A DNA stretch of 64,000 nucleotides from assembly GCA_021813125.1 (NCBI GenBank), contig JAKALT010000003.1:7800-71799 (forward strand), written 5' to 3'. The translations under genes were made by a program, and so were the position numbers. The stretch's first letter is position 1; each line of letters begins with the position of its first letter. This document shows positions 20 to 61,662 of this stretch, piece by piece. The notes under the pieces were generated by a model. It did no database searches and was not told the origin of the DNA. It worked only from the letters and a program-made list of their open reading frames with translations. This DNA comes from a bacterium (lineage in GTDB: Bacteria; Patescibacteriota; Microgenomatia; Curtissbacterales; GWA2-41-24).

Positions 20-1102
20 TTACACTCCCCAGACGCCTGATCCGTAATTTTTGACAAATCCCGAAAGTTCCATCAAAGAAAGTGCCGCCGATACTTTTTC
101 TATCGGCAATCTAGCTTCCTTGGCGATTGCATCAATATGCTTCGTTCCCCCATCCAAAATTGATAAAATCAACGCCTGATCCTTGTCTTTTGGTTTCTGG
201 TTCCTGGTCTCTGGTAACTGGTCTCTTTTCCTACTAATATCCAGCACCTCCAAAATATCCTCCGCGACTGTCGCCACATGCACCCCATCTTTTATCAGGT
301 TATTCGTCCCCTCGCTGGTTTTAGAAGTCACAAGCCCGGGCACTGCAAACACTTCCCTACCTTGCTCTGCCGCATAACCTGCGGTGATTAATGACCCAGA
401 ATCGACAGCCGCTTCTGTTACCAAAACTCCAAGAGACAATCCACTAATGATGCGGTTTCTGGCCGTAAAATTGTTCGGCAAGGCAGGGAACCCAAGCGGA
501 AATTCACTAATCAACGCCCCGTTTTTTACGACATCCTCCGCCAAGTTTCGGTTTTGGGGCGGGTAAATATTATCTAGCCCTGATCCAAGAACGGCTATTG
601 TCCGCCCACCGCTATCAAGTGCCATTCTATGAGCTACTGAATCTATCCCCCGCGCCAAACCGCTGATTATAGTCAGTCCATTCTTCGAAAGATCAAACAC
701 CAATTTCTCCGTTATCTGTCTTCCGTAAATCGTCGCATTACGGGAACCAACAACAGCTACAGCCAAATCATCGGCAGGAAGCAAATTTCCCCGGAAATAC
801 AAAACCGCGGGGCAGGCTTCCAGTTGACGCAAATTCGCAGGATAATCACGGTCAATCTTGGCGACTACTTTAATCCCCATCGCGTAAACTTTTTCAAGAT
901 AAATCTTCGGATCTACTTTATTTCGAAAATCGACTATCGATGCCTTAGTCTTTGCGTCAATCTTTAGCGAATTAATTTCTCCATCCGACGCGTCCCAAAA
1001 ATTCTTGAGCGATTTAAACTTTTTAAAAATATAAGAAAATGTCTGCGACCCGACCCCACCAATCGCACTCGTCGCCACCCAATAGGCCAATTCTCTGTTC
1101 AT
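20..1102 (-). CDS. dprA: DNA processing protein DprA (Smf)
   Basis: 360 aa protein with Rossmann-like DprA core (LVTEAAVDSGSLITAGYAAEQGREVFAVPG), an N-terminal SAM-like region and a C-terminal winged-helix tail. It carries an in-frame CCAG-heptad repeat (DQLPETRNQKP) in the linker before the C-terminal domain. Confidence 0.8.
   Translation of the reverse strand: MNRELAYWVATSAIGGVGSQTFSYIFKKFKSLKNFWDASDGEINSLKIDAKTKASIVDFRNKVDPKIYLEKVYAMGIKVVAKIDRDYPANLRQLEACPAVLYFRGNLLPADDLAVAVVGSRNATIYGRQITEKLVFDLSKNGLTIISGLARGIDSVAHRMALDSGGRTIAVLGSGLDNIYPPQNRNLAEDVVKNGALISEFPLGFPALPNNFTARNRIISGLSLGVLVTEAAVDSGSLITAGYAAEQGREVFAVPGLVTSKTSEGTNNLIKDGVHVATVAEDILEVLDISRKRDQLPETRNQKPKDKDQALILSILDGGTKHIDAIAKEARLPIEKVSAALSLMELSGFVKNYGSGVWGV
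194..225. repeat. CCAG-heptad repeat copy (CTGG orientation on the + strand), in-frame in dprA
   Basis: TTTCTGG TTCCTGG TCTCTGG TAACTGG. Its reverse complement contains GACCAGTTACCAGAGACCAG. Confidence 0.6.
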
Positions 1103-3936: not shown

Positions 3937-3942
3937 TGTTTT

Positions 3943-3976
3943 TTAATTGTTAATAGTTAATCGTTAATAGTTAGTA
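3943..3976. promoter_or_regulatory. tandem heptamer repeat (GTTAATN)x3-4 immediately upstream of the purH (AICARFT) GTG start
   Basis: TTAATT GTTAATA GTTAATC GTTAATA GTTAGT begins 7 nt from the start codon (minus-strand gene). Confidence 0.3.
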
Positions 3977-4022
3977 AAAATTCATTTCCACCAACAATAA
4001 ACCATAAACTATGAACAATGAA

Positions 4023-5771
4023 CTACTTCCTATTCTTAACCCACCAGTCCAAAATTTCCCTGGCAACGGGCCCGGCAACTACCGAACCTTCGCCGCCGTT
4101 TTCAACAACAACAGTAATCGTAACGGCAGGTTTATCAAACGGCGCATAAGCCGTAAACCATGCATGCGGATCGCCCAAAGTTTTCTCGGCCGTTCCTGTT
4201 TTGCATCCTACATTATACTGTGCGTTAAAAAAAGGCGCGCCTGTTCCACCGGTTTGGCAGGCTTGCTCCATACCAGATCGTACTACATCCAGAAACTTTG
4301 AATCAACTAAATTCTCCGCTTTAACATTCCCTTTAAAGTTAATTTCGGCACCACCCGTACCCGGATCTATCTTCGAAACAACATAAGGCTTAGTCAGTTT
4401 TCCGCTGGCAACATAGGAAGTCATCTGGTTAATTTGAATTGGTGTTGCCAGCAAAAATCCCTGGCCGATCCCAAGATGCATCGTGTCCCCGACATACCAA
4501 TCTTCGGAAAGTGTTGACCTCTTCCACACCCCGTCCGGAACCAATCCAAACGCTTCTCCAGGTAAATCGATTCCGGTAACCTGTCCAAACCCTAACTTTA
4601 CCAGCATTTTATGAAGGTCCTCTATCCCAATCATTTGGGCCGCCTTAAAGAAAAAAATGTCATTGGACCTGGCAATAGCCCGGTCAATTTTGATGATTCC
4701 GTCTGTCTTGCCGTACTGGTTGAAGTACCAATTGGAAAAAGTAGTCCCCGAAAGTTCAAACTTGCCGACATCTTCTATTTCGGTATCCGGAGTAATTTTC
4801 CCCGTAGAGAGTCCGGCCAACGCAACCGCCAGTTTAAAAACCGAACCGGGCGGGTAAACTCCCTGGATCGCCCTGTCAAAAAAAGGCTGATTCACGTCTC
4901 CTACGGATTTTCCAATATCAAATGGGTCAAAAGACGGTGCAGACGCTAAAGCCAAAATCTCACCTGTTTGCGGGTTTTGGACAATAACAGCTCCCTTTTT
5001 TGTTCCAATTTTCTCGGTTTGTTTTTTTAAAGCGTCAAAGGCAATCTTCTGTAAATTGGAATCTAACGTAATATGAATGTCGCGTCCGGTTACAGCCTGC
5101 GCATCACCCAAAATGGAAATTTTATTGCCAGTTGCGTCAATTTCGACTAACTTTTCACCCGGCTTGCCCTGCAAAAAACTGTCATAAGCCTGCTCAACAC
5201 CAAGCCGGCCTACGGAATTTATCTTGGAAAGGTTTGGGTTGTTTTCAAAATCCGAACTGTTGGCAACACTGGTATAACCCAAAATATGGGCGGTAACATC
5301 ACCCAATGTGTAAACGCGCTTAACACCTTGTTTTATCTGTCCCAGCTCTCCCTTAAAATTTTCTCCCGCAAGTCCCTGTTTTTCCAAATCTTGGGCTTGT
5401 TGGTTTGTAATCGGTGTATTGTGACCGTCTTTTGTTAAAAGATAAGAAGTCTGCGACTGGGCTAAAATTCCGCCATTCCTGTCAAATATCCTTCCTCTTG
5501 GAGCTTCAGTTTGCACCAGGTGCACCCTGTTTCCTTCCGAAAGCTCCTTATTTTCCGCCCCGTGGACTATGGAAAGAGAAAACAGTCTGCCGACAAATAC
5601 AAAAAGTATTAAAACCACAAGAATATAAAAAGGGTAAAAGACGGAGATAGGAAAGCTTCCTCCGTCACGATACAAAACCGAAGGGTCTGCGTCGCGAAAC
5701 TTCCAGCGGCGTTTGCGCTCGGAGCTTATGGAATATTCCATTCCCAGTAACCTTGGCTTTGGCTTCTTCAC
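4023..5771 (-). CDS. mrdA: penicillin-binding protein 2-like peptidoglycan transpeptidase
   Basis: 582 aa with an N-terminal TM anchor and the transpeptidase motifs SVFK (PPGSVFKLAVA) and KTGTAE. It lies directly downstream of mreB, which suggests mrdA rather than ftsI. Confidence 0.7.
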   Translation of the reverse strand: MKKPKPRLLGMEYSISSERKRRWKFRDADPSVLYRDGGSFPISVFYPFYILVVLILFVFVGRLFSLSIVHGAENKELSEGNRVHLVQTEAPRGRIFDRNGGILAQSQTSYLLTKDGHNTPITNQQAQDLEKQGLAGENFKGELGQIKQGVKRVYTLGDVTAHILGYTSVANSSDFENNPNLSKINSVGRLGVEQAYDSFLQGKPGEKLVEIDATGNKISILGDAQAVTGRDIHITLDSNLQKIAFDALKKQTEKIGTKKGAVIVQNPQTGEILALASAPSFDPFDIGKSVGDVNQPFFDRAIQGVYPPGSVFKLAVALAGLSTGKITPDTEIEDVGKFELSGTTFSNWYFNQYGKTDGIIKIDRAIARSNDIFFFKAAQMIGIEDLHKMLVKLGFGQVTGIDLPGEAFGLVPDGVWKRSTLSEDWYVGDTMHLGIGQGFLLATPIQINQMTSYVASGKLTKPYVVSKIDPGTGGAEINFKGNVKAENLVDSKFLDVVRSGMEQACQTGGTGAPFFNAQYNVGCKTGTAEKTLGDPHAWFTAYAPFDKPAVTITVVVENGGEGSVVAGPVAREILDWWVKNRK

Positions 5772-7947: not shown

Positions 7948-8034
7948 AATCGTAAATCTAAAACATTAGATTGTAAATGCTTTTTAAGGACAGTCCTTCA
8001 ATACTAAGGGCTGTCCTTGTCCTAAAAACTTTAA

Positions 8035-8646
8035 TTAATTTGTGAATTTAAAAGTCGAGAGGATTTGGTCTAATAAGGGTTTCTTCATATTTTCCGTGAT
8101 AATGAGTAAGTATCCCTCATTTGGTATCACAATAACGCGATAAGCTGGATTGTAACCACCATTTCCGCCGAGAGCCTCAACTGCTTTTTTACCATTAAAT
8201 ACTGTATCCTGTATTTTAATATTAGGTTTAGGATATGTACCGAAACTCTGGAGGTAATTATTGATCCATTGTTTTGGTGTTACATCGGTAGTCTCAGCAT
8301 ATATCTGTAATGTTATTGGTTCAGCGCTGATCACATTATCTGCATTATCCTGAATTATTAAGTGATCGGTTTCTTGATTAACAGGAATCCTCGGATTCTC
8401 CGCCTTTCGATCTAAATAATAAGGGGTGTGATTCTCAGGAAAATTTATCTCATACCCAAGTTTCGTATTTGTATACGTTTTCCAATTTGCGGTCGGATTT
8501 TGCTTAGTCGGAATTTCGGGCAACGTATCACCAATTATTTGTTTGCTGTGTATATATTTTTGGAGTAAGTAGATCGACAAAACACCAAGAATAAATCCAA
8601 TTACGGCAACGACAATAATCTGTATAAAACCACGGCGGGCAGACAT
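8035..8646 (-). CDS. array paralog, single-domain member, subtype MSARRGF
   Basis: MSARRGFIQIIVV anchor, TANWKTYTNTKLGYEINFP motif and C-terminal ILSTFKFTN. Confidence 0.7.
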   Translation of the reverse strand: MSARRGFIQIIVVAVIGFILGVLSIYLLQKYIHSKQIIGDTLPEIPTKQNPTANWKTYTNTKLGYEINFPENHTPYYLDRKAENPRIPVNQETDHLIIQDNADNVISAEPITLQIYAETTDVTPKQWINNYLQSFGTYPKPNIKIQDTVFNGKKAVEALGGNGGYNPAYRVIVIPNEGYLLIITENMKKPLLDQILSTFKFTN

Positions 8647-8677
8647 GATTCTAGTATTTCACTTCCATAACGAAGAG

Positions 8678-9115
8678 TCAAAGTGTTAGCTCTGAGATTA
8701 GGTCTTTAGGCGTGAGTGCTATCGCCGGTTTAAGAAACTTTGCAACCTTTTCATTTAAAAAGTCCTTGCGGTCTAATGTCACTAAGAAATCTGATTTTGA
8801 AAGCTTGGCTTCTGCCAGAATAACAGCGTCTTTTTGGGCAATGAACCTTTGCGCTTTTTGTAAAAGTTTAATATCGAATTGCGCTTTAAAAATTTGTGTC
8901 TGTCCGACAAGATTGAAAAAGCGCTCAAGATGGTATTCATGCAGTTTTGCCCTAACATTTCTTTCAGTCTCCGTCAAAACCCATGGGGAGACTAGCAACT
9001 TGATTTCTTTGATGGTAAATAGTTTTGCCGAACCGCCTGTTGGGGAATTGGTGGCTGTAAATAGGACGCTTGAGTCGACAAAGACAGTCTTCACAGCCTG
9101 TCTTCTTTTTGCCAC
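8678..9115 (-). CDS. PIN-domain toxin (VapC-like)
   Basis: 145 aa with a VFVDSSVL N-terminus and spaced acidic residues typical of PIN nucleases. It overlaps a Phd/YefM-like antitoxin ORF upstream. Confidence 0.6.
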   Translation of the reverse strand: MAKRRQAVKTVFVDSSVLFTATNSPTGGSAKLFTIKEIKLLVSPWVLTETERNVRAKLHEYHLERFFNLVGQTQIFKAQFDIKLLQKAQRFIAQKDAVILAEAKLSKSDFLVTLDRKDFLNEKVAKFLKPAIALTPKDLISELTL

Positions 9116-9354
9116 TCGTTAATCTCTTTTTGACTGAAATTGCGCGTTTGTGGCAAAAGTTTTGGGTCGATAAATGTCTTGCCATAAATCTTTTTGACTT
9201 CTTCCTCCAAGTGTTTAAGGTAAGCAACATCAACAAGAGCTGCTTGTGGGTTGCCGCCCTTAGTAAGGACAATGTATTGACTGCCCCGGACTTTCCTGGC
9301 AAGGTTGCCTAAGCTGTTCCTAGCCCGGGTTATAGGTACTATGTTTGTATTCAT
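9091..9354 (-). CDS. Phd/YefM-family antitoxin
   Basis: MNTNIVPITRARNSLGNLARKVRGSQYIVLTKGGNPQAALVDVAYLKHLEE matches the Phd/YefM fold consensus. The internal Met at 9354 was chosen as start, whereas the ORF track extends to 9405. It overlaps the PIN toxin by 25 nt. Confidence 0.6.
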   Translation of the reverse strand: MNTNIVPITRARNSLGNLARKVRGSQYIVLTKGGNPQAALVDVAYLKHLEEEVKKIYGKTFIDPKLLPQTRNFSQKEINEWQKEDRL

Positions 9355-9494
9355 AACGTTATAAGTATACATTATGTACAATAAAATGTCAAGTATTTTG
9401 TACAATAAAACGTGCAGTTAATTTAGAAATTTGAAGGTGGAGAGGATTTGTGTTGCTTTCGAGTCGAAATTTTCTTGTTTTAAACAATCAGAAG

Positions 9495-9842
9495 TCATCT
9501 TTTTTCGCAGGGCCGGTAATTAAATTCTATTGTTATTACGTCTTTCTTGGACGGACTTAAAAGAAATATTCTTTCTTGTTTTTCGGTTATTCCCTGATCG
9601 ATATGGGTGTAAAGAAACTTTTTTGTCTTAATATAATTTCCAGCAATTACTTGTTTACGGTCTTCCTCTTTCAAAAAGGTGCAATTAGCAAGAGCTCCTT
9701 GGGATTTTATCGGGTAGATAGTGCACGTTTGGAAACCAAAGGGTATGGGCTTGGTCTGGCAATCGTTCAGGCAGTTGTTAAGTAACATCATGGAACAACT
9801 GCTGTTACATTCTACACCTCGTAAGAAGTCAACATTTAGCAT
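9495..9842 (-). pseudogene. truncated duplicate of the 3' part of array gene 14255..14938
   Basis: A roughly 280 nt stretch at about 9421..9700 is near-identical to 14259..14530, and the encoded CTFLKEEDRKQVIAGNYIKTKKFLYTHIDQGITEKQERIFLLSPSKKDVITIEFNYRPCEK matches the C-terminal half of 14255..14938. It lacks the N-terminal anchor and the ANWKTY motif. Confidence 0.55.
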
Positions 9843-9872
9843 TTTACTACGGTATATCTATCCAAGTGTGCT

Positions 9873-10751
9873 TTAAATTGTGTAGAGAAATCCGAGGAAG
9901 TCAAGATACCACGGTTTGTCAGAAGAGATAACTGTACCATTTTGAGCGTTTATTTTTGTCTCAATAGTGGCATTGACAGGAATAAGTCCAACGAATTTTC
10001 GTTTCTGCATACCAGAAATGTCATAGTATGCCTGACCGTTTTGTTCCCCAAGAACTGCTGATTGAATAACGGTTGGTTTGTCACTCTGCTTCAGATCATT
10101 GACAGCTTGCGAAGGAAGAGTGCTGATAACAGTTACTCCGGTTGCTGTTTTAATACCAATAGTCTGTGATTTTGGGTCAATAACAACAGGCTGGTTGGTT
10201 GTTACCGTGATACCATTATTAACAAGTGTTACTGTCCCATTACTGCCTACACTTATCTGAACCGCCCCTGCCTCGGGATCCTGTATAGAAATAAGGGAAG
10301 TTTTGGAAGGCGGTACTGTTTTTTCTGTCTTAGTGCCGTCTGTCTTTTCAAGCTTAAGCGTTCCTTCGCTCGGCGTATTGGAGGTTGGGTGGACTTCTAC
10401 TTTTTCAACATTACCCTGCTGGACTTGGTTTTCAACTTCATGCTGAACATCTTTTGCTTCCTGCTCATGCTCTACTTCTTGCGCTTCTGGGGCTTCCGCG
10501 GGCTCAGGGGTTTCTACAGGTTCCTCCTCTTCAACGGTTTCCTGTTTTTCCACTTGTTCTTTCCAGGAGTTATTTGATTTCTCCCCTAAAACGTGGTTTG
10601 AACTGATTCCAACTTGAGAGAGAAATATGCCTCCCAAGATAAGAAGCGAAATAATGAGAGCTGAAAGTAAAAGACGTAAATAGGAACCTTTAGTTTTATT
10701 CGTAGAAAAGCTTTGCTTATTTACTTTACTTTTAGATTTTGACTTTTTCAT
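9873..10751 (-). CDS. hypothetical signal-anchored protein with an acidic Glu/Pro-rich linker and a Thr/Val-rich C-terminal region
   Basis: 292 aa with a K-rich N-terminus and TM anchor, an EEEPVETPEPAEAPEAQEVEHEQE low-complexity segment and beta-rich TVTLVNNGITVTT repeats. It is not a member of the ANWKTY family. Confidence 0.5.
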   Translation of the reverse strand: MKKSKSKSKVNKQSFSTNKTKGSYLRLLLSALIISLLILGGIFLSQVGISSNHVLGEKSNNSWKEQVEKQETVEEEEPVETPEPAEAPEAQEVEHEQEAKDVQHEVENQVQQGNVEKVEVHPTSNTPSEGTLKLEKTDGTKTEKTVPPSKTSLISIQDPEAGAVQISVGSNGTVTLVNNGITVTTNQPVVIDPKSQTIGIKTATGVTVISTLPSQAVNDLKQSDKPTVIQSAVLGEQNGQAYYDISGMQKRKFVGLIPVNATIETKINAQNGTVISSDKPWYLDFLGFLYTI

Positions 10752-10809
10752 AAAAAGACTTCTATTTCAGAATCTCAAATAGAAATCATAAAGTCAAGAC
10801 TTCGGACAG

Positions 10810-11658
10810 TTAATTTAGAAATTTAAATGTCGAAAGGATTTGGTCAAAATTATTTTTTACAGGAAGATCAAGAGTAAAATCATATAGAATTCCGTTATTT
10901 ACAAACTCCAAGCGTTTTACATAACCACTAGTTAAAAAAACAATTCCTTTTACTCCATCAATAGTGATGTATGTAAAATTTGTATTCTTCACATCTTTCC
11001 TGTAATCCTTTTCAATTATTGCTAATGTGGTTGTTGATGCTTCATAAGTATTAATAAAAAAGGTATTACCTAAGTCGGAAGTTGAGCCTTGGACCCCAAC
11101 CGATGCTGTATTTCCAATATCTTTATCTCCTTCAACACCACTTACTACTTCCGTATCTATTGGATACTTGAATGAATATTTATATTTTGAATTTGTATAC
11201 GTTTTCCAATTTGCAGTTTTGTCCCTTTTGAAATAATCGCCTTTTGACTTACAGGTGATTACATTTTGCCCTATTAATTGACCCGAAGCTTTTACAAATT
11301 CACCCTCTTTTGGCCAAGGAGAGTCTTGATCACAAAATACACCTGCCAGTTCTCTTTGCGGTACATTTACAGTGTAAACCGTGTTTTCTGACTGGACTTT
11401 AAAAGCAGCAAAATCGAACCCAGTTTTAATATCATTTCCAATAACTTTCCCGGAAATAGTCAAAACAGAGGTTTCATTATCTTTATTTGCAGAGCTAGGT
11501 GTTGATTGTTGTTCCGTTTGCGAAGAAGGTACCGAATCCCAATCTTTATAATTTAGCAAAGCGAAAGGAATTGCATGCATAAAAGCAAAATAGACAAATG
11601 GAATAAGAATGATCAATGCAACGATAATTATTAAAATCGGTGCAAAACCTTTTTTCAT
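10810..11658 (-). CDS. array paralog, single-domain member, subtype MKKGF
   Basis: MKKGFAPILIIIV anchor, KTANWKTYTNSKYKYSFKYP motif and C-terminal ILSTFKFLN. Its start overlaps the upstream gene stop (ATGA). Confidence 0.7.
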   Translation of the reverse strand: MKKGFAPILIIIVALIILIPFVYFAFMHAIPFALLNYKDWDSVPSSQTEQQSTPSSANKDNETSVLTISGKVIGNDIKTGFDFAAFKVQSENTVYTVNVPQRELAGVFCDQDSPWPKEGEFVKASGQLIGQNVITCKSKGDYFKRDKTANWKTYTNSKYKYSFKYPIDTEVVSGVEGDKDIGNTASVGVQGSTSDLGNTFFINTYEASTTTLAIIEKDYRKDVKNTNFTYITIDGVKGIVFLTSGYVKRLEFVNNGILYDFTLDLPVKNNFDQILSTFKFLN

Positions 11659-12848
11659 TGTGTGAATTTGAATGTCGAGAGAATTCGACTTACTTCCGCG
11701 TCATTCAATTTCTCATAAGGGGATATTAATATCCTATGCACATCTTCATCTACCGGGGTTAGTAGTAGCGCCATAACCTCATCATAAGAACTTTTTACAA
11801 CAATTGACTGTTTGCCCCCTAAAGAAAAATTATTTACAGTGTTAAGATCCAAAGTTCCTTCAACATCATTTACTTTTCCTTTTTTTGATGCCAAGTCTTT
11901 GTACCAATCTATTGGTTTACTGTATCCAGGTACTTCTTGGGGGTTAATATTACTTAAAATACGGATGTAAATATAATCTTGCGGATAACCGCTTTTTGGG
12001 TAACGCGGTTTAGCTTGTGATTCTTTTGTGGCAAAGTTTTGGTTCCTGATATAAACATCGTCCTCTGAATCATTATTGATCAACCACGTACTTGGATACT
12101 TTATGGAATACCCTAATTTTGTATTTGTATATGTTTTCCAGTTTGCAGTTTCGTTGGAAGTTAATTTAAATGCCGAGATCATATCATCAAGTATCGGCAT
12201 ATACTTTATTGGATCATCCTCAGAAGTAAGGATAAAATGATACATAACATTGTTGTGGACAAATAATTTTGTCAATGATTTTCCGGTTGAATCTGCTGTG
12301 CATTTAGAAAGAGGCTTCGGGGCTTGAATACAAATTTCTTGATCGTATTGCAAGCCGTCAATCTTCCCCAATGAGCCTATATTTAAAGTTATCGGTGTCG
12401 GATTATCAGGTGGTGGACCTGACGATCTAGGATCCTTAAAAAAATCGTTAAACCAATCCATTAATGTTGGAAATGATTCTGTATAAGCTTGGGAGGCTTG
12501 TACTTGAATAAATGCACCTTTGAATACTGTATCTTGTGCATTCAAGGGCGCCTGAAAATCGGGAGACATAAAATATAAGAATGCCTTTGATTGCCAATCG
12601 GGTGGATATTTAATAGAAAAATGATAGAGTGCTGGGTTTTGTGTTGTTACAAAATCTGCTGCATTATACGTTTTCCATTTTGCAGTTTCATCTGCTGAAA
12701 CCGACGGAGACGCCTGTGTTTCAATTTTTTGGCCAACTGCTGGAGATTTTTTGAGGAATTTCTGGTATCCAAATATTGCAGCCGCACCAAAAGCAAGTGC
12801 AATTACTGTAACTATAATAATTTGTACAAAACCGCGGCGGGCAGACAC
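11655..12848 (-). CDS. array paralog, two-domain member, subtype (M/V)SARRGF, probable GTG start
   Basis: Two motif copies (ETAKWKTYNAADF and ETANWKTYTNTKLGYSIKYPSTW), an internal MISAFKLTSNE junction and C-terminal ILSTFKFTQ. The ORF track start at 12917 would overlap the RelE-like gene by 65 nt. A GTG at 12846..12848 gives VSARRGF, matching the MSARRGF paralog at 8035..8646, and avoids the overlap. Confidence 0.65.
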   Translation of the reverse strand: MSARRGFVQIIIVTVIALAFGAAAIFGYQKFLKKSPAVGQKIETQASPSVSADETAKWKTYNAADFVTTQNPALYHFSIKYPPDWQSKAFLYFMSPDFQAPLNAQDTVFKGAFIQVQASQAYTESFPTLMDWFNDFFKDPRSSGPPPDNPTPITLNIGSLGKIDGLQYDQEICIQAPKPLSKCTADSTGKSLTKLFVHNNVMYHFILTSEDDPIKYMPILDDMISAFKLTSNETANWKTYTNTKLGYSIKYPSTWLINNDSEDDVYIRNQNFATKESQAKPRYPKSGYPQDYIYIRILSNINPQEVPGYSKPIDWYKDLASKKGKVNDVEGTLDLNTVNNFSLGGKQSIVVKSSYDEVMALLLTPVDEDVHRILISPYEKLNDAEVSRILSTFKFTQ

Positions 12849-12852
12849 ACTT

Positions 12853-13110
12853 TTAGTATATATCTTTTCTATAAGCGACATCTTCAAAATATATTGATTT
12901 TGCCTTGTCATCAACAAAATAAATTACCCTGACTTTACCTACCCTTAGCCTCCACGCACTGCTTCCTGCCAAATGCTTTACTTTTTTGCCTTTTGGAAAT
13001 GGATCCAAAGCTAATTTCTCTATCTCTGAAATTACCCTCTTTTTATCCTGCTTGTGAAGTTTTTTTAATTGTTTGTCAAAGCCTTGCGAAAATTGGAGCT
13101 TGTACGGCAT
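12853..13110 (-). CDS. RelE/ParE-family toxin
   Basis: 85 aa starting MPYKLQFSQGFDKQLKKLHKQDKKRVISEIEKLALDPFPKGKKVKHLAGSSAWRLRVGKVRVIYFVDD, typical of the RelE/ParE fold. Its start overlaps the stop of an upstream antitoxin-like ORF (TAATG). Confidence 0.65.
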   Translation of the reverse strand: MPYKLQFSQGFDKQLKKLHKQDKKRVISEIEKLALDPFPKGKKVKHLAGSSAWRLRVGKVRVIYFVDDKAKSIYFEDVAYRKDIY

Positions 13111-13382
13111 TAAAGACTATGTCTTTTTTTAATTTCATCCAGGCTAAAATATTTTCCACGGCCTGCAGTTTTTTCAAGTTTCCTGGCAACTATTGCATCC
13201 TCTAAATCTTCTATCGTTTCTTTAAGCTGGGAAAATTCTTCAATGGACATAATGACTGCTTTTGGTTTGGAATGGTGGTATAGAAATACAGGCTCGGCGG
13301 TTTTTTCAACTTGATCCAAAAGTTCCAGCGCTTTTTCGCGCATATCTGTAATGGTTTTTGTATTTTGTGCGGTAGGTATCAT
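13110..13382 (-). CDS. Phd/YefM- or RelB-like antitoxin
   Basis: 90 aa reading PVFLYHHSKPKAVIMSIEEFSQLKETIEDLEDAIVARKLEK, the antitoxin pattern of non-cleavable partner plus alpha-helical tail. It lies immediately upstream of the RelE-like toxin. Confidence 0.55.
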   Translation of the reverse strand: MIPTAQNTKTITDMREKALELLDQVEKTAEPVFLYHHSKPKAVIMSIEEFSQLKETIEDLEDAIVARKLEKTAGRGKYFSLDEIKKRHSL

Positions 13383-13421
13383 ATTTATCTTAGGTTAGTA
13401 TAAGATTAATCTAAGATTTTG

Positions 13422-14258
13422 TCAATTGGTAAATTTAAAGGTGGAGAGTATTTGGTCGAAAAGACGTACTTCATCTCGAAAAGGAATTTCTACTAATATG
13501 GAGTAGCCATTATTTTTATTTTCAGCGTATATAGATTTAATATAAGAATAAGTCTTTGTATTTGAAGGTTTATCCAGACTCTCTTCTTCAATAACACCTT
13601 CTTTTGCATGAACACCATCTAGATTCACACTTTTTATGTTTTTGAGGTCACGAAAAACACTTTCGCTAAAATCTTTACCTTGCCTCTCTTTATATTGGAT
13701 TAAGTATTCTTTGGAAAAATAGTATACCGTCAAAACTGAGTATTGGGCAGAAATATTACGTTCATGTCCTTCTATTACAAAGACCGGTATACCGAAGCTA
13801 GAATCTTCATAAACCTTAAAATCTGAAGGGTAAGAAATTTGAAATCCACGCTTTTGGTTTGTGTACGTTTTCCAATTCGTAGTTTCGGCTGTTTTAACTG
13901 TTTGTGGAGATGTATATTCATGCGATGAAAGTTTATAAACTGTACCGATAAAAGACACAAAATAAGTATCTGCTGTCGGGGTTTTAGATAATGATGGACA
14001 ACTTATGACAATTGTAGTTTGCCTGCCAAAATCGAAATAATCTTTCAAATTAAATTTGTTGACGTCAGCAGGGAAAGTGGTTTTATAATCATAAACAACT
14101 TTAGGGAGTTTGAACTCTTCGCAGGGTGGTTTTATAGTTGATAGCACTTTTTGTTTTGCAAAATTGTCGGTAACCCATGGAGCCCAAGCTGCTATAGAAA
14201 TCAATGAAATTAGAAAAATTAATCCTACAATTATTATTTGTGCAAAGCCTTTCTTCAT
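13422..14258 (-). CDS. array paralog, single-domain member, subtype MKKGF
   Basis: MKKGFAQIIIVGLIFLISLISIAAWAPW anchor, ETTNWKTYTNQKRGFQISYP motif and C-terminal ILSTFKFTN. Confidence 0.7.
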   Translation of the reverse strand: MKKGFAQIIIVGLIFLISLISIAAWAPWVTDNFAKQKVLSTIKPPCEEFKLPKVVYDYKTTFPADVNKFNLKDYFDFGRQTTIVISCPSLSKTPTADTYFVSFIGTVYKLSSHEYTSPQTVKTAETTNWKTYTNQKRGFQISYPSDFKVYEDSSFGIPVFVIEGHERNISAQYSVLTVYYFSKEYLIQYKERQGKDFSESVFRDLKNIKSVNLDGVHAKEGVIEEESLDKPSNTKTYSYIKSIYAENKNNGYSILVEIPFRDEVRLFDQILSTFKFTN

Positions 14259-17959: not shown

Positions 17960-18028
17960 TAATTTAATCGTAGATCTAAAACAGCAGGTTGTAAATACAT
18001 TACAAGGACAGCCCTTGATCTAAAAGAA

Positions 18029-19518: not shown

Positions 19519-19543
19519 AGGAATTTAACTGTACAGAGAATCA

Positions 19544-20557: not shown

Positions 20558-20630
20558 CTAACTTAATCGTAGCTCTCAAACGGCCAATTATTCAATTGCC
20601 AAAGTCCAAAACGGCTGTTAACATCAGTAC

Positions 20631-22619
20631 GTGACTGGTTCACTTGAAAACTATTTGAAAAAAGGTATTGATTTCTGCCTTTTAGCTCTTGCCGTTGCAA
20701 CCCCTTTTATTTTTACAACCCAAACAACGGAACTATTTGAAGTTCCTAAAATGTTTTTCGTTTATTTGGTTTCAACATTGCTCTTCTTCCTGCTGGTTTC
20801 CAAATCTTTAATAGAAAGAAAAATTACATTTCCAATTGGCCCGGCAACAATTGCCTTTGGTATTTTTCTTCTGACCCAAATTGCCTCGACCATAACATCG
20901 CAAGACAAGTATCTTTCAATCTTTGGCTACCCTACGCGCCTAAACGGCGGGCTGCTTTCGCTAATTTCCTATTTTGTGATCTTTATTGCGGCAATTACCC
21001 AACTTGATAAAATTCGCGCAAACCGAATTCTTTTGGCTCTGGTAATTTCCGCAACGGCCGTGTCGCTATGGGGCATCCCTGCCCATTTCGGTTTCGACCC
21101 TTCTTGTTACGTTTTAACGGGAAACCTCAATTCCGGCTGCTGGACTGCAGACTTCAATCCGATGCTTAGGATTTTCTCTACCTTAGGCCAACCGAATTGG
21201 CTTGCGTCTTACTTGGTCTTGGCCTTACCGATCTCGCTCACCCACTTTCTACTTTTTAAATCCAGTAAGGCAAAACTTTTCTTTGGGGCTGCCGCGGCAT
21301 TAATTTTTATGGCATTAGTTTTAACAACTTCGCGGGCCGGAATTCTTGGCGCAGTAATCTCCATTGCGATTTTTGCTGCCTTTCTTGGCGGAAAACTGCT
21401 GAAGGAAAATCTGAAAATCGTAGCTGGAATTCTGGCAGTATTTGTTGTCATTTGGCTGGCATTCGGAACAGCCTTAACTTCCAGAATTGCAGAAGCCCTA
21501 ACGGCCAACAAATCCAAAATCAGCTCGCCGCTTGCAAATACCCTAACAAAACCAAGCCAGTCTGCGCTAACTACCGGCGGAACCGAATCCAGCCAAATCC
21601 GCTTTATCGTCTGGCAGGGTGCTTTAAAAGTTTTCCAAAGGTGGCCGATTTTGGGAAGCGGCCCGGAAACTTTCGTTAACAGCTATTACCTTTTCCGCCC
21701 GGCCACCCACAACCAAACCACCGAATGGAAATTCTTCTACAACAAAGCCCACAACGAATTCCTAAACTATCTTGCAACAACCGGGGTCGTTGGTCTTCTC
21801 GGATATTTAGGGCTGCTTCTGGCAATATTCTGGCAGCTTGCCAAAAAAGCGGCAGGAGAAAAATCAACGCTTGCGGCTTTAGCCGGATACCAGGTAACTA
21901 TCTTTTTCGGTTTCTCGACAGTTGCCACTCAAACTGTTTTTTTCTTGGCAGCCGCATCCGCACTCGCCGCAACCGGGGTTGAAAAAACTAAAACGCAAAG
22001 TCTAAAACTTGAAAAAATTCCATTGTATACTGCTGTCTCTTTAACGGCTGTTTTTTCACTATACCTTTTAACATTCATCTTAAGGTTGGCACTTGCCGAC
22101 ACCATCCAAAAACGTGCCGAAAGTTACCAGGAAACCGCACCAAGCCGAGCTCTTATAATATTCGACAACGCCCAAACCGCCTCACCTGCCGATAATCCTT
22201 ATTTGTCATCAGCTTTTGCCTACGCCCTGGCTGCATATGCAACGGACGTGAAGGATGAAAATTCCGCCCAAAAATTGGTAAACCGCGCAGATGCTCTTGC
22301 CCGCGCAACACAAAAAATAGCTCCCAACAATTTCCTGACAACATTAGACATTGCCAAAACCTACCTGCTTCTTTCCCAAAAAAATGAAAAATTCCAAGGC
22401 CAGGCCGAACATTTTGCCCAAAAGCTTCCGCAAATGGCTCCAACTTACCCTGTTTCTTACCTGCAACTTGCAAAAACACAAATAGCCCTAGACAAAAAAG
22501 CTGATGCTCAAAAGTCACTCCAAACCGCACTCGAGCTAAGGCCGGATTACGCAGAAGCCAAAGAGCTACTTGATCAGCTAAATAGTCACCAGCAACCAGA
22601 GACCAGCAACCAGAAATAA
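20631..22619 (+). CDS. polytopic membrane protein with O-antigen ligase-like (Wzy_C-type) core and a C-terminal TPR-like region
   Basis: 662 aa with more than 10 predicted TM helices and a large periplasmic loop region, followed by an alpha-helical repeat region (AKTYLLLSQKNEKFQGQAEHFAQKL..LQTALELRPDYAEAKELL). This architecture is typical of Wzy_C/O-antigen-ligase-like proteins. A CCAG-heptad repeat is encoded in-frame at the C-terminus (QQPETSNQK). Confidence 0.55.
   Translation: MTGSLENYLKKGIDFCLLALAVATPFIFTTQTTELFEVPKMFFVYLVSTLLFFLLVSKSLIERKITFPIGPATIAFGIFLLTQIASTITSQDKYLSIFGYPTRLNGGLLSLISYFVIFIAAITQLDKIRANRILLALVISATAVSLWGIPAHFGFDPSCYVLTGNLNSGCWTADFNPMLRIFSTLGQPNWLASYLVLALPISLTHFLLFKSSKAKLFFGAAAALIFMALVLTTSRAGILGAVISIAIFAAFLGGKLLKENLKIVAGILAVFVVIWLAFGTALTSRIAEALTANKSKISSPLANTLTKPSQSALTTGGTESSQIRFIVWQGALKVFQRWPILGSGPETFVNSYYLFRPATHNQTTEWKFFYNKAHNEFLNYLATTGVVGLLGYLGLLLAIFWQLAKKAAGEKSTLAALAGYQVTIFFGFSTVATQTVFFLAAASALAATGVEKTKTQSLKLEKIPLYTAVSLTAVFSLYLLTFILRLALADTIQKRAESYQETAPSRALIIFDNAQTASPADNPYLSSAFAYALAAYATDVKDENSAQKLVNRADALARATQKIAPNNFLTTLDIAKTYLLLSQKNEKFQGQAEHFAQKLPQMAPTYPVSYLQLAKTQIALDKKADAQKSLQTALELRPDYAEAKELLDQLNSHQQPETSNQK
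22586..22614. repeat. CCAG-heptad repeat copy at the 3' end of the Wzy-like gene
   Basis: CACCAGCAACCAGAGACCAGCAACCAG. Confidence 0.6.
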
Positions 22620-22982
22620 ATGGACAAAGCGAATAAAGGATATCGAAATTTAATTGCCTGGCAGTTTGCAAATAAACTGGCACACGAAATTTATGATGCG
22701 ACAGCAGATTTTCCAAAACAAGAAGTGTTCAGTTTAACAAGCCAAATGAAAAGAGCAGCAGTGTCAGTTCCGGCAAACATTGCAGAAGGTTACATGAGAA
22801 AAAGTCAAAAAGAAAAAAGGCGTTTTTATAACATATCTCTCGGATCGCTAACTGAACTTGAGTACTATATAGACTTTGCTTTTGAAAGAAGTTATTATAA
22901 AAATACAATTTATAACAAATTGTCTGCCCTTCAAACTGAAACCGCCAAGATTCTTACAGGTTTAACAAAATCTCTAAAATAA
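22620..22982 (+). CDS. four-helix-bundle protein (23S rRNA intervening-sequence protein family)
   Basis: 120 aa reading GYRNLIAWQFANKLAHEIYDATADFPKQEVFSLTSQMKRAAVSVPANIAEGYMRKSQKEKRRFYNISLGSLTELEYY, the characteristic signature of this family. It starts immediately after the upstream stop codon. Confidence 0.6.
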   Translation: MDKANKGYRNLIAWQFANKLAHEIYDATADFPKQEVFSLTSQMKRAAVSVPANIAEGYMRKSQKEKRRFYNISLGSLTELEYYIDFAFERSYYKNTIYNKLSALQTETAKILTGLTKSLK

Positions 22983-22985
22983 CCT

Positions 22986-23010
22986 GCTAACTGGTCTCTG
23001 GCAACTGGAA
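22986..23010. repeat. CCAG-heptad repeat copy (CTGG orientation) in the 31-nt spacer upstream of glyA
   Basis: CTAACTGGTCTCTGGCAACTGG followed by AAACTATG. Confidence 0.55.
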
Positions 23011-23013
23011 ACT

Positions 23014-24333
23014 ATGACACTAACAAAAACCGATCCCCAAATCGCCAAGCTTATTCTTGCCGAAGAAAAGCGCCAAAAAGAAGTATTGGAAATGATCCCT
23101 TCCGAAAATTACGCGTCTGCTGCAGTTAGGTCGGCACTCGGAACGGTCCTCAACAACAAATACTCCGAGGGCTATCCCAAAAAAAGGTATTACCAGGGCA
23201 ATAAAATTGTAGACGAAGTTGAATTGCTGGCAATCGAACGAGCCAAAAAACTTTTCGGTGTTCCCTATGTTAATGTCCAGGCGCTTTCAGGATCACCTGC
23301 CAACTTGGCGGTTTATGTTGCCCTCCTGGAACCGCAAAAGGATAAAATCATGGGTCTTTCTTTGGCTTTTGGCGGACATTTAACCCATGGCCAGCCGCAA
23401 TCCGTCACCGGAAAGTTTTTCAAATCGGTCCTTTATGAACTAGGAAAAGACGGCAGATTGGATTTTGCAGCAATCGAAAAACAGGCATTAAAAGAAAAAC
23501 CCAAAATTATAGTCTGCGGCTTTACCGCATATCCGAGAATTATCGACTTTAAAAAGTTTGCGGCTATCGCCGATAAAGTAGGTGCCTACCTGCTTGCCGA
23601 CATTTCCCACATCGCCGGCCTTGTTGTTGCCGGTGTTCACCCGTCTCCCGCTCCGTATGCTCACATCATTACCACCACAACCCACAAAACTTTGCGAGGG
23701 CCGCGCGGGGCTTTAATTATGGTAACCGCAAAAGGTTTGAAAAAAGACGCGGACTTGGGCAAAAAAATCGACAGTGCCATTATCCCCGGAATTCAGGGAG
23801 GCCCGCACGACGACCAAACCGCCGCAATTGCCGTTGCACTGAAAGAAGCGGCAACTCCTGCTTTCAAAAAATATTCCGCTCAGATTGTTAAAAACACTAA
23901 AACGCTGGCCACAGAATTGACAAAATTCGGCTTCAACCTTGTTTCCGGCGGCTCGGACAATCACTTGATATTAATTGATTTAAAAAACAAAGGTGTAAAC
24001 GGTGCAATCGCAGCCTATGCGCTGGAAGTTGCCAATATTGTCGTCAACAAAAACGGGGTTCCTTTTGATACTATGCCCCCATTCTATCCATCCGGCATCC
24101 GTCTTGGAACTCCGGCCATTACCACCCGCGGAATGAAAGAAGCCGAAATGAAAAAAATCGCCGCCTGGATGAGGCGGGTTATAGAAGAAGTCAAAAATGA
24201 AAAACTTCCACAAGATAAAGAAAAACGCTCGAATTTTCTGAAAAACTTCCGCGACCGCGCCAACAAAAACAAAAATCTCCTGCAAATCGCAAAAGAGGTT
24301 AAAACCTTGACCGGCAAATTCCTAATACCATGA
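23014..24333 (+). CDS. glyA: serine hydroxymethyltransferase
   Basis: 439 aa with the SHMT N-terminal signature (PSENYASAAVRSALGTVLNNKYSEGYP) and the PLP-lysine region TTTTHKTLRGPRGALIM. Confidence 0.9.
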   Translation: MTLTKTDPQIAKLILAEEKRQKEVLEMIPSENYASAAVRSALGTVLNNKYSEGYPKKRYYQGNKIVDEVELLAIERAKKLFGVPYVNVQALSGSPANLAVYVALLEPQKDKIMGLSLAFGGHLTHGQPQSVTGKFFKSVLYELGKDGRLDFAAIEKQALKEKPKIIVCGFTAYPRIIDFKKFAAIADKVGAYLLADISHIAGLVVAGVHPSPAPYAHIITTTTHKTLRGPRGALIMVTAKGLKKDADLGKKIDSAIIPGIQGGPHDDQTAAIAVALKEAATPAFKKYSAQIVKNTKTLATELTKFGFNLVSGGSDNHLILIDLKNKGVNGAIAAYALEVANIVVNKNGVPFDTMPPFYPSGIRLGTPAITTRGMKEAEMKKIAAWMRRVIEEVKNEKLPQDKEKRSNFLKNFRDRANKNKNLLQIAKEVKTLTGKFLIP

Positions 24334-24644: not shown

Positions 24645-24677
24645 ACAAACCGATTTCCGATCCCGCAAAATCCAGCC

Positions 24678-24908: not shown

Positions 24909-24983
24909 CTTTTGAAACTTAAAAAGTATCTATAAAAAGAGAGTCCTTGACCAGCAGGTTCCCAATACCTTAAAATTCCCTCC

Positions 24984-25499: not shown

Positions 25500-25502
25500 A
25501 GC

Positions 25503-25521
25503 ACTGGTAACTGGTCACTGG
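25503..25521. repeat. CCAG-heptad repeat copy (CTGG orientation) in the spacer upstream of folD
   Basis: CTGGTAACTGGTCACTGG followed by AAACTATAAACTAT. Confidence 0.55.
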
Positions 25522-25539
25522 AAACTATAAACTATCCTC

Positions 25540-26469
25540 ATGGCACAAATCTTAGATGGTCGCGCAGTTCGCGATGCAATACTGGAAGATCTTAAAAGCC
25601 AGATCACAAAACTCGAAACCAAACCAAAACTGGTAATCATCCAAGTCGGCGATAACCCCGAAAGTAATACTTACATCGGTCAAAAAATAAAATTCGGCGA
25701 AAAAATCGGTGCAATTGCCGAACTTAAAAAATTTCCTGTAGATATCAGTCAAAAAGATCTAGAATCTATCATCTATCATCTAAACTCTGACCCGACTGTC
25801 CACGGCATCATTATCCAGCTTCCTATTTCCGATCATCTGGACAAAGACGCATTGATAGAACTTATCGACCCCAAAAAAGATGTGGATGGCCTTACGTCTG
25901 CCAACCAAAAACTTTTGGAAGAAAATAGCCCCGATGCTTTAGTTCCGGCAACAGCCAAAGGCGTAATCACAATTTTAGATTTTTATAAAATCCAGATTAA
26001 GGGAAAAAAAGCAGCAGTCGTCGGCCGATCCAAACTTGTGGGCGCACCAGTTGCCAGCCTTTTGAGAAATCTGGGAGCCGAAGTTACCGTCGGCCACAGC
26101 CAAACACCGGATTTAACCGCCGTCACAAAACCTGCAGACATTATTGTAGTAGCCGTCGGCAAACCGAATTTAATCGGCAAAGAGCATGTTTCACCGGGAC
26201 AAACAATAATCGACGTCGGGATAAATGTAGTTGACCAGTTACCAGAGACCAGAGACCAGACAGAAGGTCAGGAATCAGAAAAGGTCAGGCCTTGGAAAAC
26301 TGAAAGGCCTGACCTTAAGAGTACGCGCAAGCTCGTTGGCGACGTAAACTTTGCGGAAGTCGAACCAATTGTCGCCGCAATCACCCCCGTCCCCGGCGGC
26401 GTCGGCCCCATGACCGTTGCATCTTTATTTGAAAACTTCCTCGAAGCCTACAAACAACAAAATGCTTGA
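25540..26469 (+). CDS. folD: bifunctional methylenetetrahydrofolate dehydrogenase / methenyl-THF cyclohydrolase
   Basis: MAQILDGRAVRDAILEDLK...VIIQVGDNPESNTYIGQKIK N-terminus and the PVPGGVGPMTVASL C-terminal motif. It carries an atypical insertion of about 27 aa between GIN and KLVGDV (see findings). Confidence 0.85.
   Translation: MAQILDGRAVRDAILEDLKSQITKLETKPKLVIIQVGDNPESNTYIGQKIKFGEKIGAIAELKKFPVDISQKDLESIIYHLNSDPTVHGIIIQLPISDHLDKDALIELIDPKKDVDGLTSANQKLLEENSPDALVPATAKGVITILDFYKIQIKGKKAAVVGRSKLVGAPVASLLRNLGAEVTVGHSQTPDLTAVTKPADIIVVAVGKPNLIGKEHVSPGQTIIDVGINVVDQLPETRDQTEGQESEKVRPWKTERPDLKSTRKLVGDVNFAEVEPIVAAITPVPGGVGPMTVASLFENFLEAYKQQNA
26233..26260. repeat. CCAG-heptad repeat copy in-frame inside folD
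   Basis: GACCAGTTACCAGAGACCAGAGACCAG encodes DQLPETRDQ. The same 20-mer occurs in dprA. Confidence 0.6.
26281..26317. repeat. palindromic hairpin element copy (in-frame inside folD)
   Basis: AAGGTCAGGCC-TTGGAAAACTGAA-AGGCCTGACCTT, an 11-bp perfect stem. Confidence 0.6.
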
Positions 26470-27055: not shown

Positions 27056-27184
27056 TATTTATTGTTAAAAACCTCCTCGAAGCCTACGCAAAATAACATT
27101 AGTCTAATAATCTAGATTACTAGACTTCAAGACTAATCTGGTTTCCTTGACCATTAGCCTGTTGCGATTTAATATTAACGGCAA

Positions 27185-36734: not shown

Positions 36735-37199
36735 TTGGGCAATTTAAAATTCCCATCCCGCGCATTCCCTGCTAAAATAAAATCAATGCCCCTCCGAAAT
36801 AAAGCAGTCAGCAGTCTGCAGCATGCAGTCAGCAAAAAAGGCTTCACCTTAATCGAGGTACTACTTTCTTCATTTTTCTTTATCGCCTTAATAACCATCC
36901 TTCTTTCATCCTCGGGGACCCTATTAAACACCAGAAAAACTAACCTGGAAACTGTCGCTTCAAAAGTCGCCAGCAAACAAATCGAAAACTTAAGAAATAT
37001 GCCTTACGCTTCGGTCACCTCAGGCTCTATTGTAGACGGCGATCTCTCAAAATTACCCCAAGGGGCAGGAACCAAAACTGTCACCAGTTACCAGTCCAGC
37101 GCGGACATCAAAGACGTTCTAATTACAGTTACCTGGGTAGAAAACCACGCATCCAAGCAACTGAAAATGGAAACCTTAATTTACAAAAACGGATTGTAA
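36735..37199 (+). CDS. type IV pilin-like protein (prepilin-type N-terminal cleavage/methylation domain), probable minor pilin
   Basis: Contains KKGFTLIEVLLSSFFFIALITILL with Gly(-1), Phe(+1) and Glu(+5). The true start may be the internal Met at 36786. Confidence 0.6.
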   Translation: MGNLKFPSRAFPAKIKSMPLRNKAVSSLQHAVSKKGFTLIEVLLSSFFFIALITILLSSSGTLLNTRKTNLETVASKVASKQIENLRNMPYASVTSGSIVDGDLSKLPQGAGTKTVTSYQSSADIKDVLITVTWVENHASKQLKMETLIYKNGL

Positions 37200-61659: not shown

Positions 61660-61662
61660 ATT

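Follow-up and report, generated by a model that had tools for sequence, protein, structure and literature searches.

We examined a tandem heptad repeat with the core CCAG (CTGG on the opposite strand) in a 64,000-nt stretch of DNA, hereafter the window, taken from contig JAKALT010000003.1 (assembly GCA_021813125.1, positions 7,800 to 71,799) of an ultra-small, Candidatus Curtissbacteria-like bacterium of the Candidate Phyla Radiation (CPR). Copies of this repeat lie in dprA, folD and a prepilin-type gene, at the end of a wzy-like gene, and directly upstream of glyA and folD. The heptads are best explained, with a probability of roughly 0.6, as arrays of the short tandemly repeated repetitive (STRR) type that occur lineage-wide in this CPR genome, and whose organised form makes up the two arms of a cassette that resembles the intervening sequences (IVSs) of rRNA genes and carries a gene of the family PF05635. 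The argument builds on the excess of the repeats, on the architecture of the cassette and its recurrence elsewhere, on its lineage-specific gain and loss, and on the orientation of the arrays relative to genes.

The CCAG-N3 heptads were located at six loci in the window (Table 1), where counts from shuffled sequence gave an expectation of about zero. At five of these loci, three or four CCAG cores follow each other at exact 7-nt steps, that is, in the three or more tandem units that characterise STRR sequences and long heptanucleotide simple sequence repeats (SSRs). The three-core motif CCAGN3CCAGN3CCAG was matched 8 times (0.00 expected) and the two-core motif CCAGN3CCAG 15 times (1.0 expected), including a two-heptad match at 26047-26057 in the conserved FolD core (GAPVAS) that is probably due to chance. 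The 20-mer GACCAGTTACCAGAGACCAG was found exactly twice, at 204-223 on the minus strand in dprA and at 26233-26252 on the plus strand in folD (expected 0), and three near-matches were present, of which the shuffles yielded none. A first-pass annotation of the sequence had listed the six copies with their translations, had pointed out the 20-mer common to dprA and folD, and had suspected that the motif was over-represented and tolerated in frame in housekeeping genes; all of this was borne out. The dprA and folD arrays are translated as DQLPETRNQKP and DQLPETRDQ, respectively, and the array at the end of wzy supplies the C-terminus HQQPETSNQK, followed by the stop codon. Some of the listed copies call for qualification. 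The pilin copy lies in frame but is weak, comprising just two heptads, and could be either a decayed array or a chance match. The copies at the end of Wzy and upstream of glyA, although correctly placed, are not independent, as they form inverted arms around a gene.

Table 1. Heptad arrays, PF05635 cassettes and dispersed palindromes. Positions refer to the window; L numbers designate loci compared with it.
Feature	Position or locus	Strand	Array or unit	Remarks
Solo CCAG array, dprA linker (DNA_processg_A / winged-helix)	191..226	-	GACCAGTTACCAGAGACCAGGAACCAG (sense)	4 CCAG cores and a degenerate tail
Cassette 5' arm	22582..22613	+	CCAGcaaCCAGagaCCAGcaaCCAG	last wzy codons; inverted repeat I1
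Cassette cargo gene, PF05635 23S_rRNA_IVP / S23p / 'four helix bundle protein' (bAvd-like)	22620..22982	+		120 aa; Pfam E = 2e-35
Cassette 3' arm (the copy upstream of glyA)	22984..23015	+	reads CTGGtctCTGGcaaCTGG	CCAG unit on the - strand
folD leader/promoter array	25503..25539	+	CTGGtaaCTGGtcaCTGGaaa, then AAACTAT x2	
CCAG array in the FolD surface loop, between DVGINV and RKLVGDV	26233..26260	+	GACCAGTTACCAGAGACCAGAGACCAG	in frame
Partial copy, prepilin-type gene	37081..37100	+	CACCAGTTACCAGTCCAGC	2 heptads; encodes TSYQSS
Empty inverted array pair, between the penicillin-binding protein (PBP) stop and the purH start	3940..4025	-	AACNATT	short loop; no cargo
REP-like palindrome copies	26281-26316 (FolD), 27515-27562 (PriA), 7986-8018, 33838-33884			
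REP-like palindrome copies	41257-41303, 41580-41627, 48079-48124, 61402-61447			
PF05635 gene, mnmA / VWA	L102		5' CCAGagaCTAGagaCCAG; 3' CTGGtccCTGGaagCTGG	
PF05635 gene, type IV secretion system (T4SS) pilin genes	L106-111		5' NNTCAGG x5; 3' CCTGANN x5	
PF05635 gene, atpG / atpD	L116-118		5' NNTCAAG x4; 3' CTCTTG	
PF05635 gene	L064		5' AGTCAGA; 3' TTCTGAC	distant homolog
PF05635 gene, peptidyl-prolyl isomerase (PPIase) / nrdR	L112		5' none clear; 3' CTGG x2	
PF05635 gene, Nostoc edaphicum	L120		5' GTAGGGA x8; 3' TCCCTAC x5	
PF05635 gene, Calothrix	L121		5' GTGTAGG x4; 3' CTACACC x4	
PF05635 gene, N. punctiforme	L122		5' GAGTCAG x7; 3' CTCCTGACTTCTGA	
PF05635 gene, Anabaena sp. 90	L126		5' AGGTGAC; 3' GTCACCT x4	

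The gene enclosed by the two arms encodes a four-helix-bundle protein of the type found as the open reading frame (ORF) of S23p-type IVSs, and its product matches PDB 2GSC (Xanthomonas XCC0516; E = 1.5e-17). The 5' arm ends 6 nt before the ATG of this gene, and the 3' arm starts 8 nt after its stop codon and ends 5 nt before the ATG of glyA. The arms are 32 nt long and 75% complementary and enclose the ORF in a predicted stem, as in an IVS; of all inverted repeats in the window whose arms lie within 1.2 kb, theirs is the longest. They pair in both the minimum free energy fold and the centroid fold of the 461-nt region; the predicted pairing consists of an 11-bp perfect core (CCAGAGACCAG/CUGGUCUCUGG) and flanking pairs, and the duplex dG is -38.1, compared with -13.3 +/- 3.3 for shuffles (z = -7.5). 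The array pair before purH (Table 1) has a cassette-like architecture but is empty; it is predicted to fold into an extended hairpin in which mismatches recur every 7 nt (dG -22.8, z -3.4), and its array adjoining purH is conserved in L094.

In close relatives of the window (L092, L094, L096, and L097), wzy overlaps or abuts glyA, and the PF05635 gene and both arrays are absent. More distant relatives (L099-101 and L103-105) carry the gene and both arrays in the slot between wzy and glyA. According to the identity of serine hydroxymethyltransferase (SHMT), the window is nested among the cassette-negative genomes (94% to L097), with L099 and L103 as outgroups at 67-75%, which implies that the cassette was gained or lost at this single site at least twice. 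The copy upstream of glyA had initially been taken for a possible promoter element; this role was not upheld, because the copy is the 3' arm of an inserted cassette and is missing from the relatives that lack the cassette.

The association between PF05635 genes and heptad arrays recurred in five further CPR or metagenome contexts and on eight cyanobacterial plasmids, where the arrays have other units and are mostly inverted. An array was scored where an identical 4-mer occurred at three or more 7-nt steps no farther than 80 nt from the gene; an earlier criterion of strict identity at lag 7 was dropped because arrays that keep their cores but vary in their spacers escaped it. Next to the PF05635 gene, arrays of at least three copies were found in seven of eight contexts; among the remaining genes of these CPR loci the figure was 18 of 180 (Fisher P = 2e-6), and among background genes it was 12 of 797. 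The same criterion returned no arrays with periods of 6 or 8 beside PF05635 genes. Arm pairing was significant in six of the eight contexts. Outside the CPR, a search of 72,556 plasmids retrieved PF05635 homologs in 29 records, 27 of which were cyanobacterial, and long STRR-like arrays flank PF05635 genes on the cyanobacterial plasmids inspected. Among eight plasmid homologs inspected, six had a 3-copy heptad array on at least one flank and three had arrays on both flanks, and a seventh homolog pairs on visible heptads. The genes occupy operon sites such as those between cas10 and cmr3, between cas6 and cas4, and between the ribonucleotide reductase (RNR) subunit genes (cyanobacterial plasmids, L120-L129), as well as between atpG and atpD, and in 11 of 13 independent contexts they point in the same direction as the genes on either side. 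Across 50 kb of N. punctiforme pNPUN01, the heptad arrays are mostly inverted pairs, one of which carries the PF05635 gene and the others of which are empty (964/1071, 44822/44854, and 46630/46787).

The window cassette shares with the S23p IVSs of Coxiella burnetii and Leptospira the PF05635 cargo, the terminal inverted repeats that give rise to a stem enclosing the ORF, and the sense orientation of the ORF in the host transcript. The helix-45 IVS of Coxiella, which contains an S23p ORF, bears three to four tandem GACAGAT heptamers just 5' of the ORF; these heptamers lie inside the stem formed by the terminal inverted repeats, vary in number between strains, and include at their first unit the site cut by RNase III (Warrier 2016, PMC4990558). 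Tandem heptamers immediately 5' of the ORF in the stem are likewise a feature of the window cassette. Unlike these IVSs, the window cassette is located in a protein-coding operon, between wzy and glyA, rather than in helix 25 or 45 of the 23S rRNA; moreover, one of its arms is translated as the C-terminus of Wzy, both of its arms are heptad arrays, and processing by RNase III would apply to it by analogy. ORFs of the 23S_rRNA_IVP type have been reported in rRNA insertions of the CPR (Tsurumaki 2024, PMC11270868). A further link to rRNA was provided by an exact scan for the 20-mer across 185,579 species genomes, which returned 7 matches. One of them falls within 118 nt inserted at the helix-45 tip of a Patescibacteria 23S rRNA (L009), beside a second heptad array. 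This insertion (L009 4165-4280) consists mostly of two heptad arrays (GAACAGN x4 and CTGGTNN x3) and a small hairpin, and contains no ORF. Two other matches come from dprA orthologs, in which the location of the array is identical, and the rest fall in unrelated genes of other metagenome-assembled genomes (MAGs), labelled Saccharimonadales (L007) and Gammaproteobacteria (L006 and L011); in L007 and L011 the encoded peptide is again DQLPET. The idea of a master copy behind the identical 20-mers of different genomes is weakened by the low number of matches and by the bias of spacer usage to AGA and TTA.

Two families of heptamer repeats invite comparison. The cyanobacterial STRR sequences were reportedly described by Mazel et al. 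in 1990, with the units CCCCAGT, TTGGTCA, and CAACAGT for STRR1-3. They have been used for STRR fingerprinting and, as in the window, comprise several tandem-heptanucleotide families of unknown function dispersed in the genome. Their units differ from those found here, and they are described as mainly intergenic and regarded as specific to heterocystous cyanobacteria. TAACTGA heptamers are known from Beggiatoaceae, cyanobacteria, and Bacteroidetes (MacGregor 2015, PMC4679880) and resemble the window arrays in repeating a 7-nt unit 2-6 times, in some arrays interrupted by related heptamers, with forward copies a few nucleotides 5' of starts that lack a Shine-Dalgarno sequence and reverse copies in ORFs at the protein periphery. 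For some heptads only, the units themselves are similar, the reverse complement of CCAGTTA being TAACTGG (a 6/7 match). They are distinguished from the window arrays, which have the core CTGG with variable spacers, reside in a CPR host, and have half or more of their copies (4/6) in ORFs rather than being mostly intergenic. The orthologs of FolD and DprA are named Candidatus Curtissbacteria (CPR/Microgenomates), a host lineage outside those of the STRR and TAACTGA repeats. MacGregor 2015 (PMC4679880) makes no mention of a link to PF05635, S23p, or IVSs, and a search of the literature available found PF05635 tied to STRR or heptamer arrays in general in no case beyond Coxiella.

From this architecture we propose that the PF05635 hairpin cassette is embedded in sense orientation in an operon, here between wzy and glyA, and that its two arms would pair in the transcript. 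As in rRNA IVSs, the stem may then be cut by RNase III, and such cleavage would release the cassette RNA and give glyA a 5' end of its own. The other copies would be solo arrays or distant partners that derive from or interact with the cassette system and are kept where they do little harm: CCAG-sense copies would be tolerated in a loop (FolD), an interdomain linker (DprA), and a C-terminus (Wzy), and CTGG-sense copies in the folD leader/promoter. Several observations weigh against this proposal. A role as cassette arm can be demonstrated for only two of the six copies, and the shared unit is the only direct tie between the cassette and the copies in dprA, the folD loop, and the pilin gene. 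Arm pairing is weak or insignificant in L112 and L116, the arrays of the cyanobacterial L127 are direct rather than inverted, and those of the cyanobacterial L123 have a period of about 8. Since the window, L099, and L103 occupy one slot, the independent contexts are fewer than the raw count. In addition, a search by signature motif revealed no RNase III gene (rnc) in the window; nor did it reveal one for a reverse transcriptase. Finally, the many in-ORF arrays with other units (in PriA, the N-terminal domain of FolD, and DprA linkers) may reflect slippage-prone replication, in which case the cassette arms would be a special case and not the source.

The solo arrays in dprA and folD differ in their conservation. 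In dprA, the 32-nt run over the array is the longest identical run in three orthologs with 80-82% nucleotide identity, the next-longest being 17 nt (codon-shuffle P = 0.006). At the protein level, the linker is hypervariable among 120 DprA orthologs and often resembles translated heptads; the motif QLPETR[DN]Q recurs in orthologs with 72-91% identity and is replaced in some with 74-86% identity. The linkers of four orthologs (P0244-P0246 and P0264) read RQVTRDTKH, and if the underlying DNA were GTTACCAGAGAC in another frame, the conservation would be at the nucleotide level. No heptad partner for the dprA array was found nearby. In FolD, the suggestion that the segment is lineage-specific was confirmed by the ortholog alignment: QLPETRDQTEGQES is confined to the window's species and absent from 32 of 32 aligned orthologs, including those with 77-80% identity. 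The loop between DVGINV and RKLVGDV varies in length from 2 to ~70 residues across 33 orthologs, and the FolD of the window exceeds the Pfam model by ~30 residues at the array. A metagenome scan for FolD relatives yielded only distant FolDs (<=46% identity), which were used as a background set only.

The folD leader contains three CTGG-type heptads followed by AAACTAT AAACTAT in five species (the window, L097, L098, L094, and L096), in all of which the array has a fixed distance to the ATG, with the CTGG cores kept and the spacers varying. Within the two AAACTAT units, TATAAA forms a -10-like box that lies 8 nt ahead of the ATG. The leader array is absent in L092, which has AAAGGA instead, and in L099 and L103, in which folD abuts glyA. 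The leader and loop arrays of folD are reciprocal best complements window-wide, with a 14-nt perfect match and a duplex dG of -30.3 (background -11.6 +/- 4.3). In the window and in close relatives, the interval between glyA and folD (24334-25539, ~1.2 kb) holds two small ORFs without an assigned function (104 and 171 aa); it is absent in L099 and L103. Its right edge is marked by the folD leader array, and a matching array at its left edge was not found.

The orientation of the arrays follows their gene context. Counted by the DNA strand of the window rather than by the direction of replication, the six copies split 3 (+) : 3 (-). Four of them lie inside ORFs, and the intergenic ones are CTGG-sense and located 5 and 18 nt from an ATG. 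The independent arrays of at least three heptads inside ORFs were all CCAG-sense (8/8), and all intergenic ones were CTGG-sense. In the CTGG sense, one reading frame is interrupted by a TAA stop and the other two encode peptides rich in Trp, so that the in-gene orientation can be explained by selection on the peptide; translation in the CCAG sense gives a hydrophilic peptide without stops. A fixed reading frame was not found among the in-ORF copies, with six in one phase and three in another. If the overall reading holds, brief hydrophilic insertions in the housekeeping proteins of CPR bacteria may be side products of repetitive DNA, without necessarily having a function in the protein.

The CCAG heptads form part of a wider excess of period-7 arrays. 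Tandem Repeats Finder detected ~20 such arrays in the window, with many different units. Under an exact criterion applied to periods 4-15, period 7 yielded 8 arrays, period 14 yielded 5 and period 9 yielded 2, with no arrays at any other period; a looser criterion gave 12 period-7 arrays, compared with 0.3 expected. Array density per 100 kb was 18.8 in the window, 20.2 in close relatives, and 37 in the other loci bearing the 20-mer, compared with 1.0 in unrelated bacteria (864 kb). The arrays thus show the dispersal and the period-7-specific excess of the STRR/SSR class, ~20-fold over unrelated loci. Most of them lie inside genes, with three in PriA (27341-27374, 28278-28304, and 28684-28704) and two in FolD (one of them, of another unit, at 25757-25784); arrays of other units also occur at 41686-41722, 61625-61662, and 36803-36834. 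CCAG-N3 is the commonest heptad family in the window, and ATCTAAA, GAAATTC, AGCAGTC, and TTAATAG are also recurrent; the units of further arrays, mostly inside ORFs, include GAAATTC, AGCAGTC, ACGATTC, ATCTATC, ATCTAAA, and ACTTATC. Near residue 52 of PriA, GAAATTC x5 in the window corresponds to a CCAG array in L094, which means that one protein site hosts different units across species. The window is identical to contigs of the MAG GCA_027346405.1. The four independent assemblies of the species, a small sample that may stem from a single population, are 99.95-100% identical without indels. Phase-variable contingency SSRs were rejected, given that copy number is invariant among these four assemblies, which may represent one population.

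Other explanations were weighed against the cassette. The arrays might be neutral microsatellites produced by slipped-strand mispairing, with a replication machinery that favours 7-nt slippage and with the CCAG family and the cassette flanks both functionless. Such an origin would suit the many unrelated units inside ORFs, the exchange of units in PriA, the hypervariability of the DprA linker, and the finding, quoted from Mrazek 2007 in PMC4679880, that heptanucleotides are the commonest long SSR class in bacteria. Slippage, however, copies whole units, yet the CCAG core is kept while three spacer positions vary, also in the folD leader of five species; the array in dprA is the most conserved 32 nt of the gene although it lies in the least constrained region; inverted array pairs surround one gene family in two phyla; and copy number is not polymorphic among the four assemblies. 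We consider slippage on its own unlikely. Adenine mutagenesis of the type caused by diversity-generating retroelements (DGRs) was rejected as the cause of the variable spacers because the A of CCAG is invariant. A role as operator or leader sites of the one-carbon genes glyA, folD, and purH, read by a heptad-recognising regulator (a ribbon-helix-helix (RHH)/omega-like or Streptomyces antibiotic regulatory protein (SARP)-like DNA-binding protein, or a Csp or S1-like RNA-binding protein, as proposed for TAACTGA), appears improbable. Arrays do lie directly 5' of all three genes, forward TAACTGA arrays are found a few nucleotides from start codons without a Shine-Dalgarno sequence (MacGregor 2015, PMC4679880), and the folD array combines a fixed distance to the ATG with conserved CTGG cores in five species and occupies the -35 position of a promoter that has a -10 box and no recognisable -35. 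Against this role, the glyA array exists only where the PF05635 cassette is present, folD abuts glyA without an array in L099 and L103 and lacks its array in L092, and the same arrays are also present in a 23S rRNA loop and within unrelated coding sequences. The lack of a Shine-Dalgarno sequence is also uninformative, as such sequences are nearly absent genome-wide (10/70 genes), and the same frequency makes the idea that the array replaces a Shine-Dalgarno sequence non-discriminating. The array was also rejected as the folD -35 element, since it has at most 3/6 matches to TTGACA at any spacing.

A mobile element that inserts in frame, either of the Rickettsia palindromic element (RPE) type or like a miniature inverted-repeat transposable element (MITE), is very doubtful. 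It would account for the species-specific FolD copy, for the tolerance of arrays in frame in loops and linkers, and for the identical 20-mer in unrelated genes of other CPR MAGs, and RPEs likewise represent repeated DNA tolerated in frame at surface positions of housekeeping proteins. RPEs are nevertheless palindromic, ~100-150 bp long, and have defined ends. The window copies, which the first-pass annotation had compared with RPEs, proved to be short direct heptad repeats of 21-32 nt without fixed ends, and a single array has no self-complementarity; they have neither defined termini nor target duplications, and their copy number and spacers vary. In the closest FolD ortholog (L097), VDQ is encoded with GAT CAA, a near-match to the array-initial GAC CAG, so local growth of the folD array is possible. 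The identity of the 20-mer between genomes (7 matches in 185,579) is explicable by biased spacer usage. Least probable of all, and scarcely to be expected, is a DNA uptake sequence or a polar signal like Chi, both of which had also been considered at the outset, or like the FtsK-orienting polar sequences (KOPS). In favour of such a signal are the excess of the motif, the presence of a copy in dprA, and the presumed dependence of CPR bacteria on DNA uptake. The E. coli Chi sequence is GCTGGTGG, part of which CTGGT resembles. The six loci in 64 kb, however, correspond to ~1 per 10 kb, compared with ~1 per kb for DNA uptake sequences and uptake signal sequences (DUS/USS), and only the 4-nt core CCAG is invariant. 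The even strand split also disagrees with a polar signal, and orientation follows the gene context (CCAG-sense in ORFs, CTGG-sense in leaders) and not the chromosome. A scan of viral contigs for the 20-mer gave no matches, a result that is uninformative for this signal either way.

Additional features were observed in the window. A dispersed palindrome resembling repetitive extragenic palindromic (REP) sequences, AAGG[G/T]CAGGCCTT-loop-AAGGCCTG[C/A]CCTT, had 24 half-site matches (1.8 expected). It lies mostly just 3' of genes and occurs in frame in FolD, where it encodes KVRPWKTERPDL, and in PriA. Orthologs retain the copy in FolD; in L094 it carries a G>A / C>T change that is compensatory, and L096 has additional copies. 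This RPE-like in-frame palindrome of FolD and PriA is a separate repeat, AAGGNCAGGCCTT, distinct from the heptads. Promoters are canonical (TTGACN-17-TAnAAT) and end 8-9 nt before the starts (e.g., 27146-27187 for priA and 25525-25542 for folD); from this position of the -10 box, most mRNAs are predicted to be leaderless. The related genomes L005 and L010 share with the window a conserved 9-nt tandem repeat (TACCTTTGA / CTTTTGATA, ~4 copies), which lies at 2926-2964, immediately upstream of the gene spanning 2362-2922. A ~13 kb segment of low GC content (8000-20600; 0.35-0.37 vs 0.42-0.44), located between mreB and wzy and absent from the syntenic L092, L094, and L096, is probably a strain-specific island, and a conserved sequence (ttctctcgacattcaaattcacaca ATG) precedes several of its genes.

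A broader interpretation can be put forward tentatively and with less confidence than the cassette itself: the cyanobacterial STRRs, the TAACTGA repeats, and the CPR heptads might all be cis-acting arms of widespread IVS-like PF05635 cassettes that have spread, in sense orientation, into operons and rRNA genes. The in-frame arrays of dprA and folD, like other solo arrays and empty inverted pairs, would then be ORF-less derivatives or footprints, and the arms would be read by a pentameric PF05635 protein or, when paired, by RNase III. If the interpretation is true, heptamer repeats would extend beyond heterocystous cyanobacteria and a few other groups to the CPR, at a similar density. The repeats would also gain a concrete partner gene, and the nature of the STRRs and the role of the S23p/IVS family would become testable together. 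Overall, the cassette-like architecture in cyanobacteria may help to explain heptamer repeats that have been unexplained since 1990.

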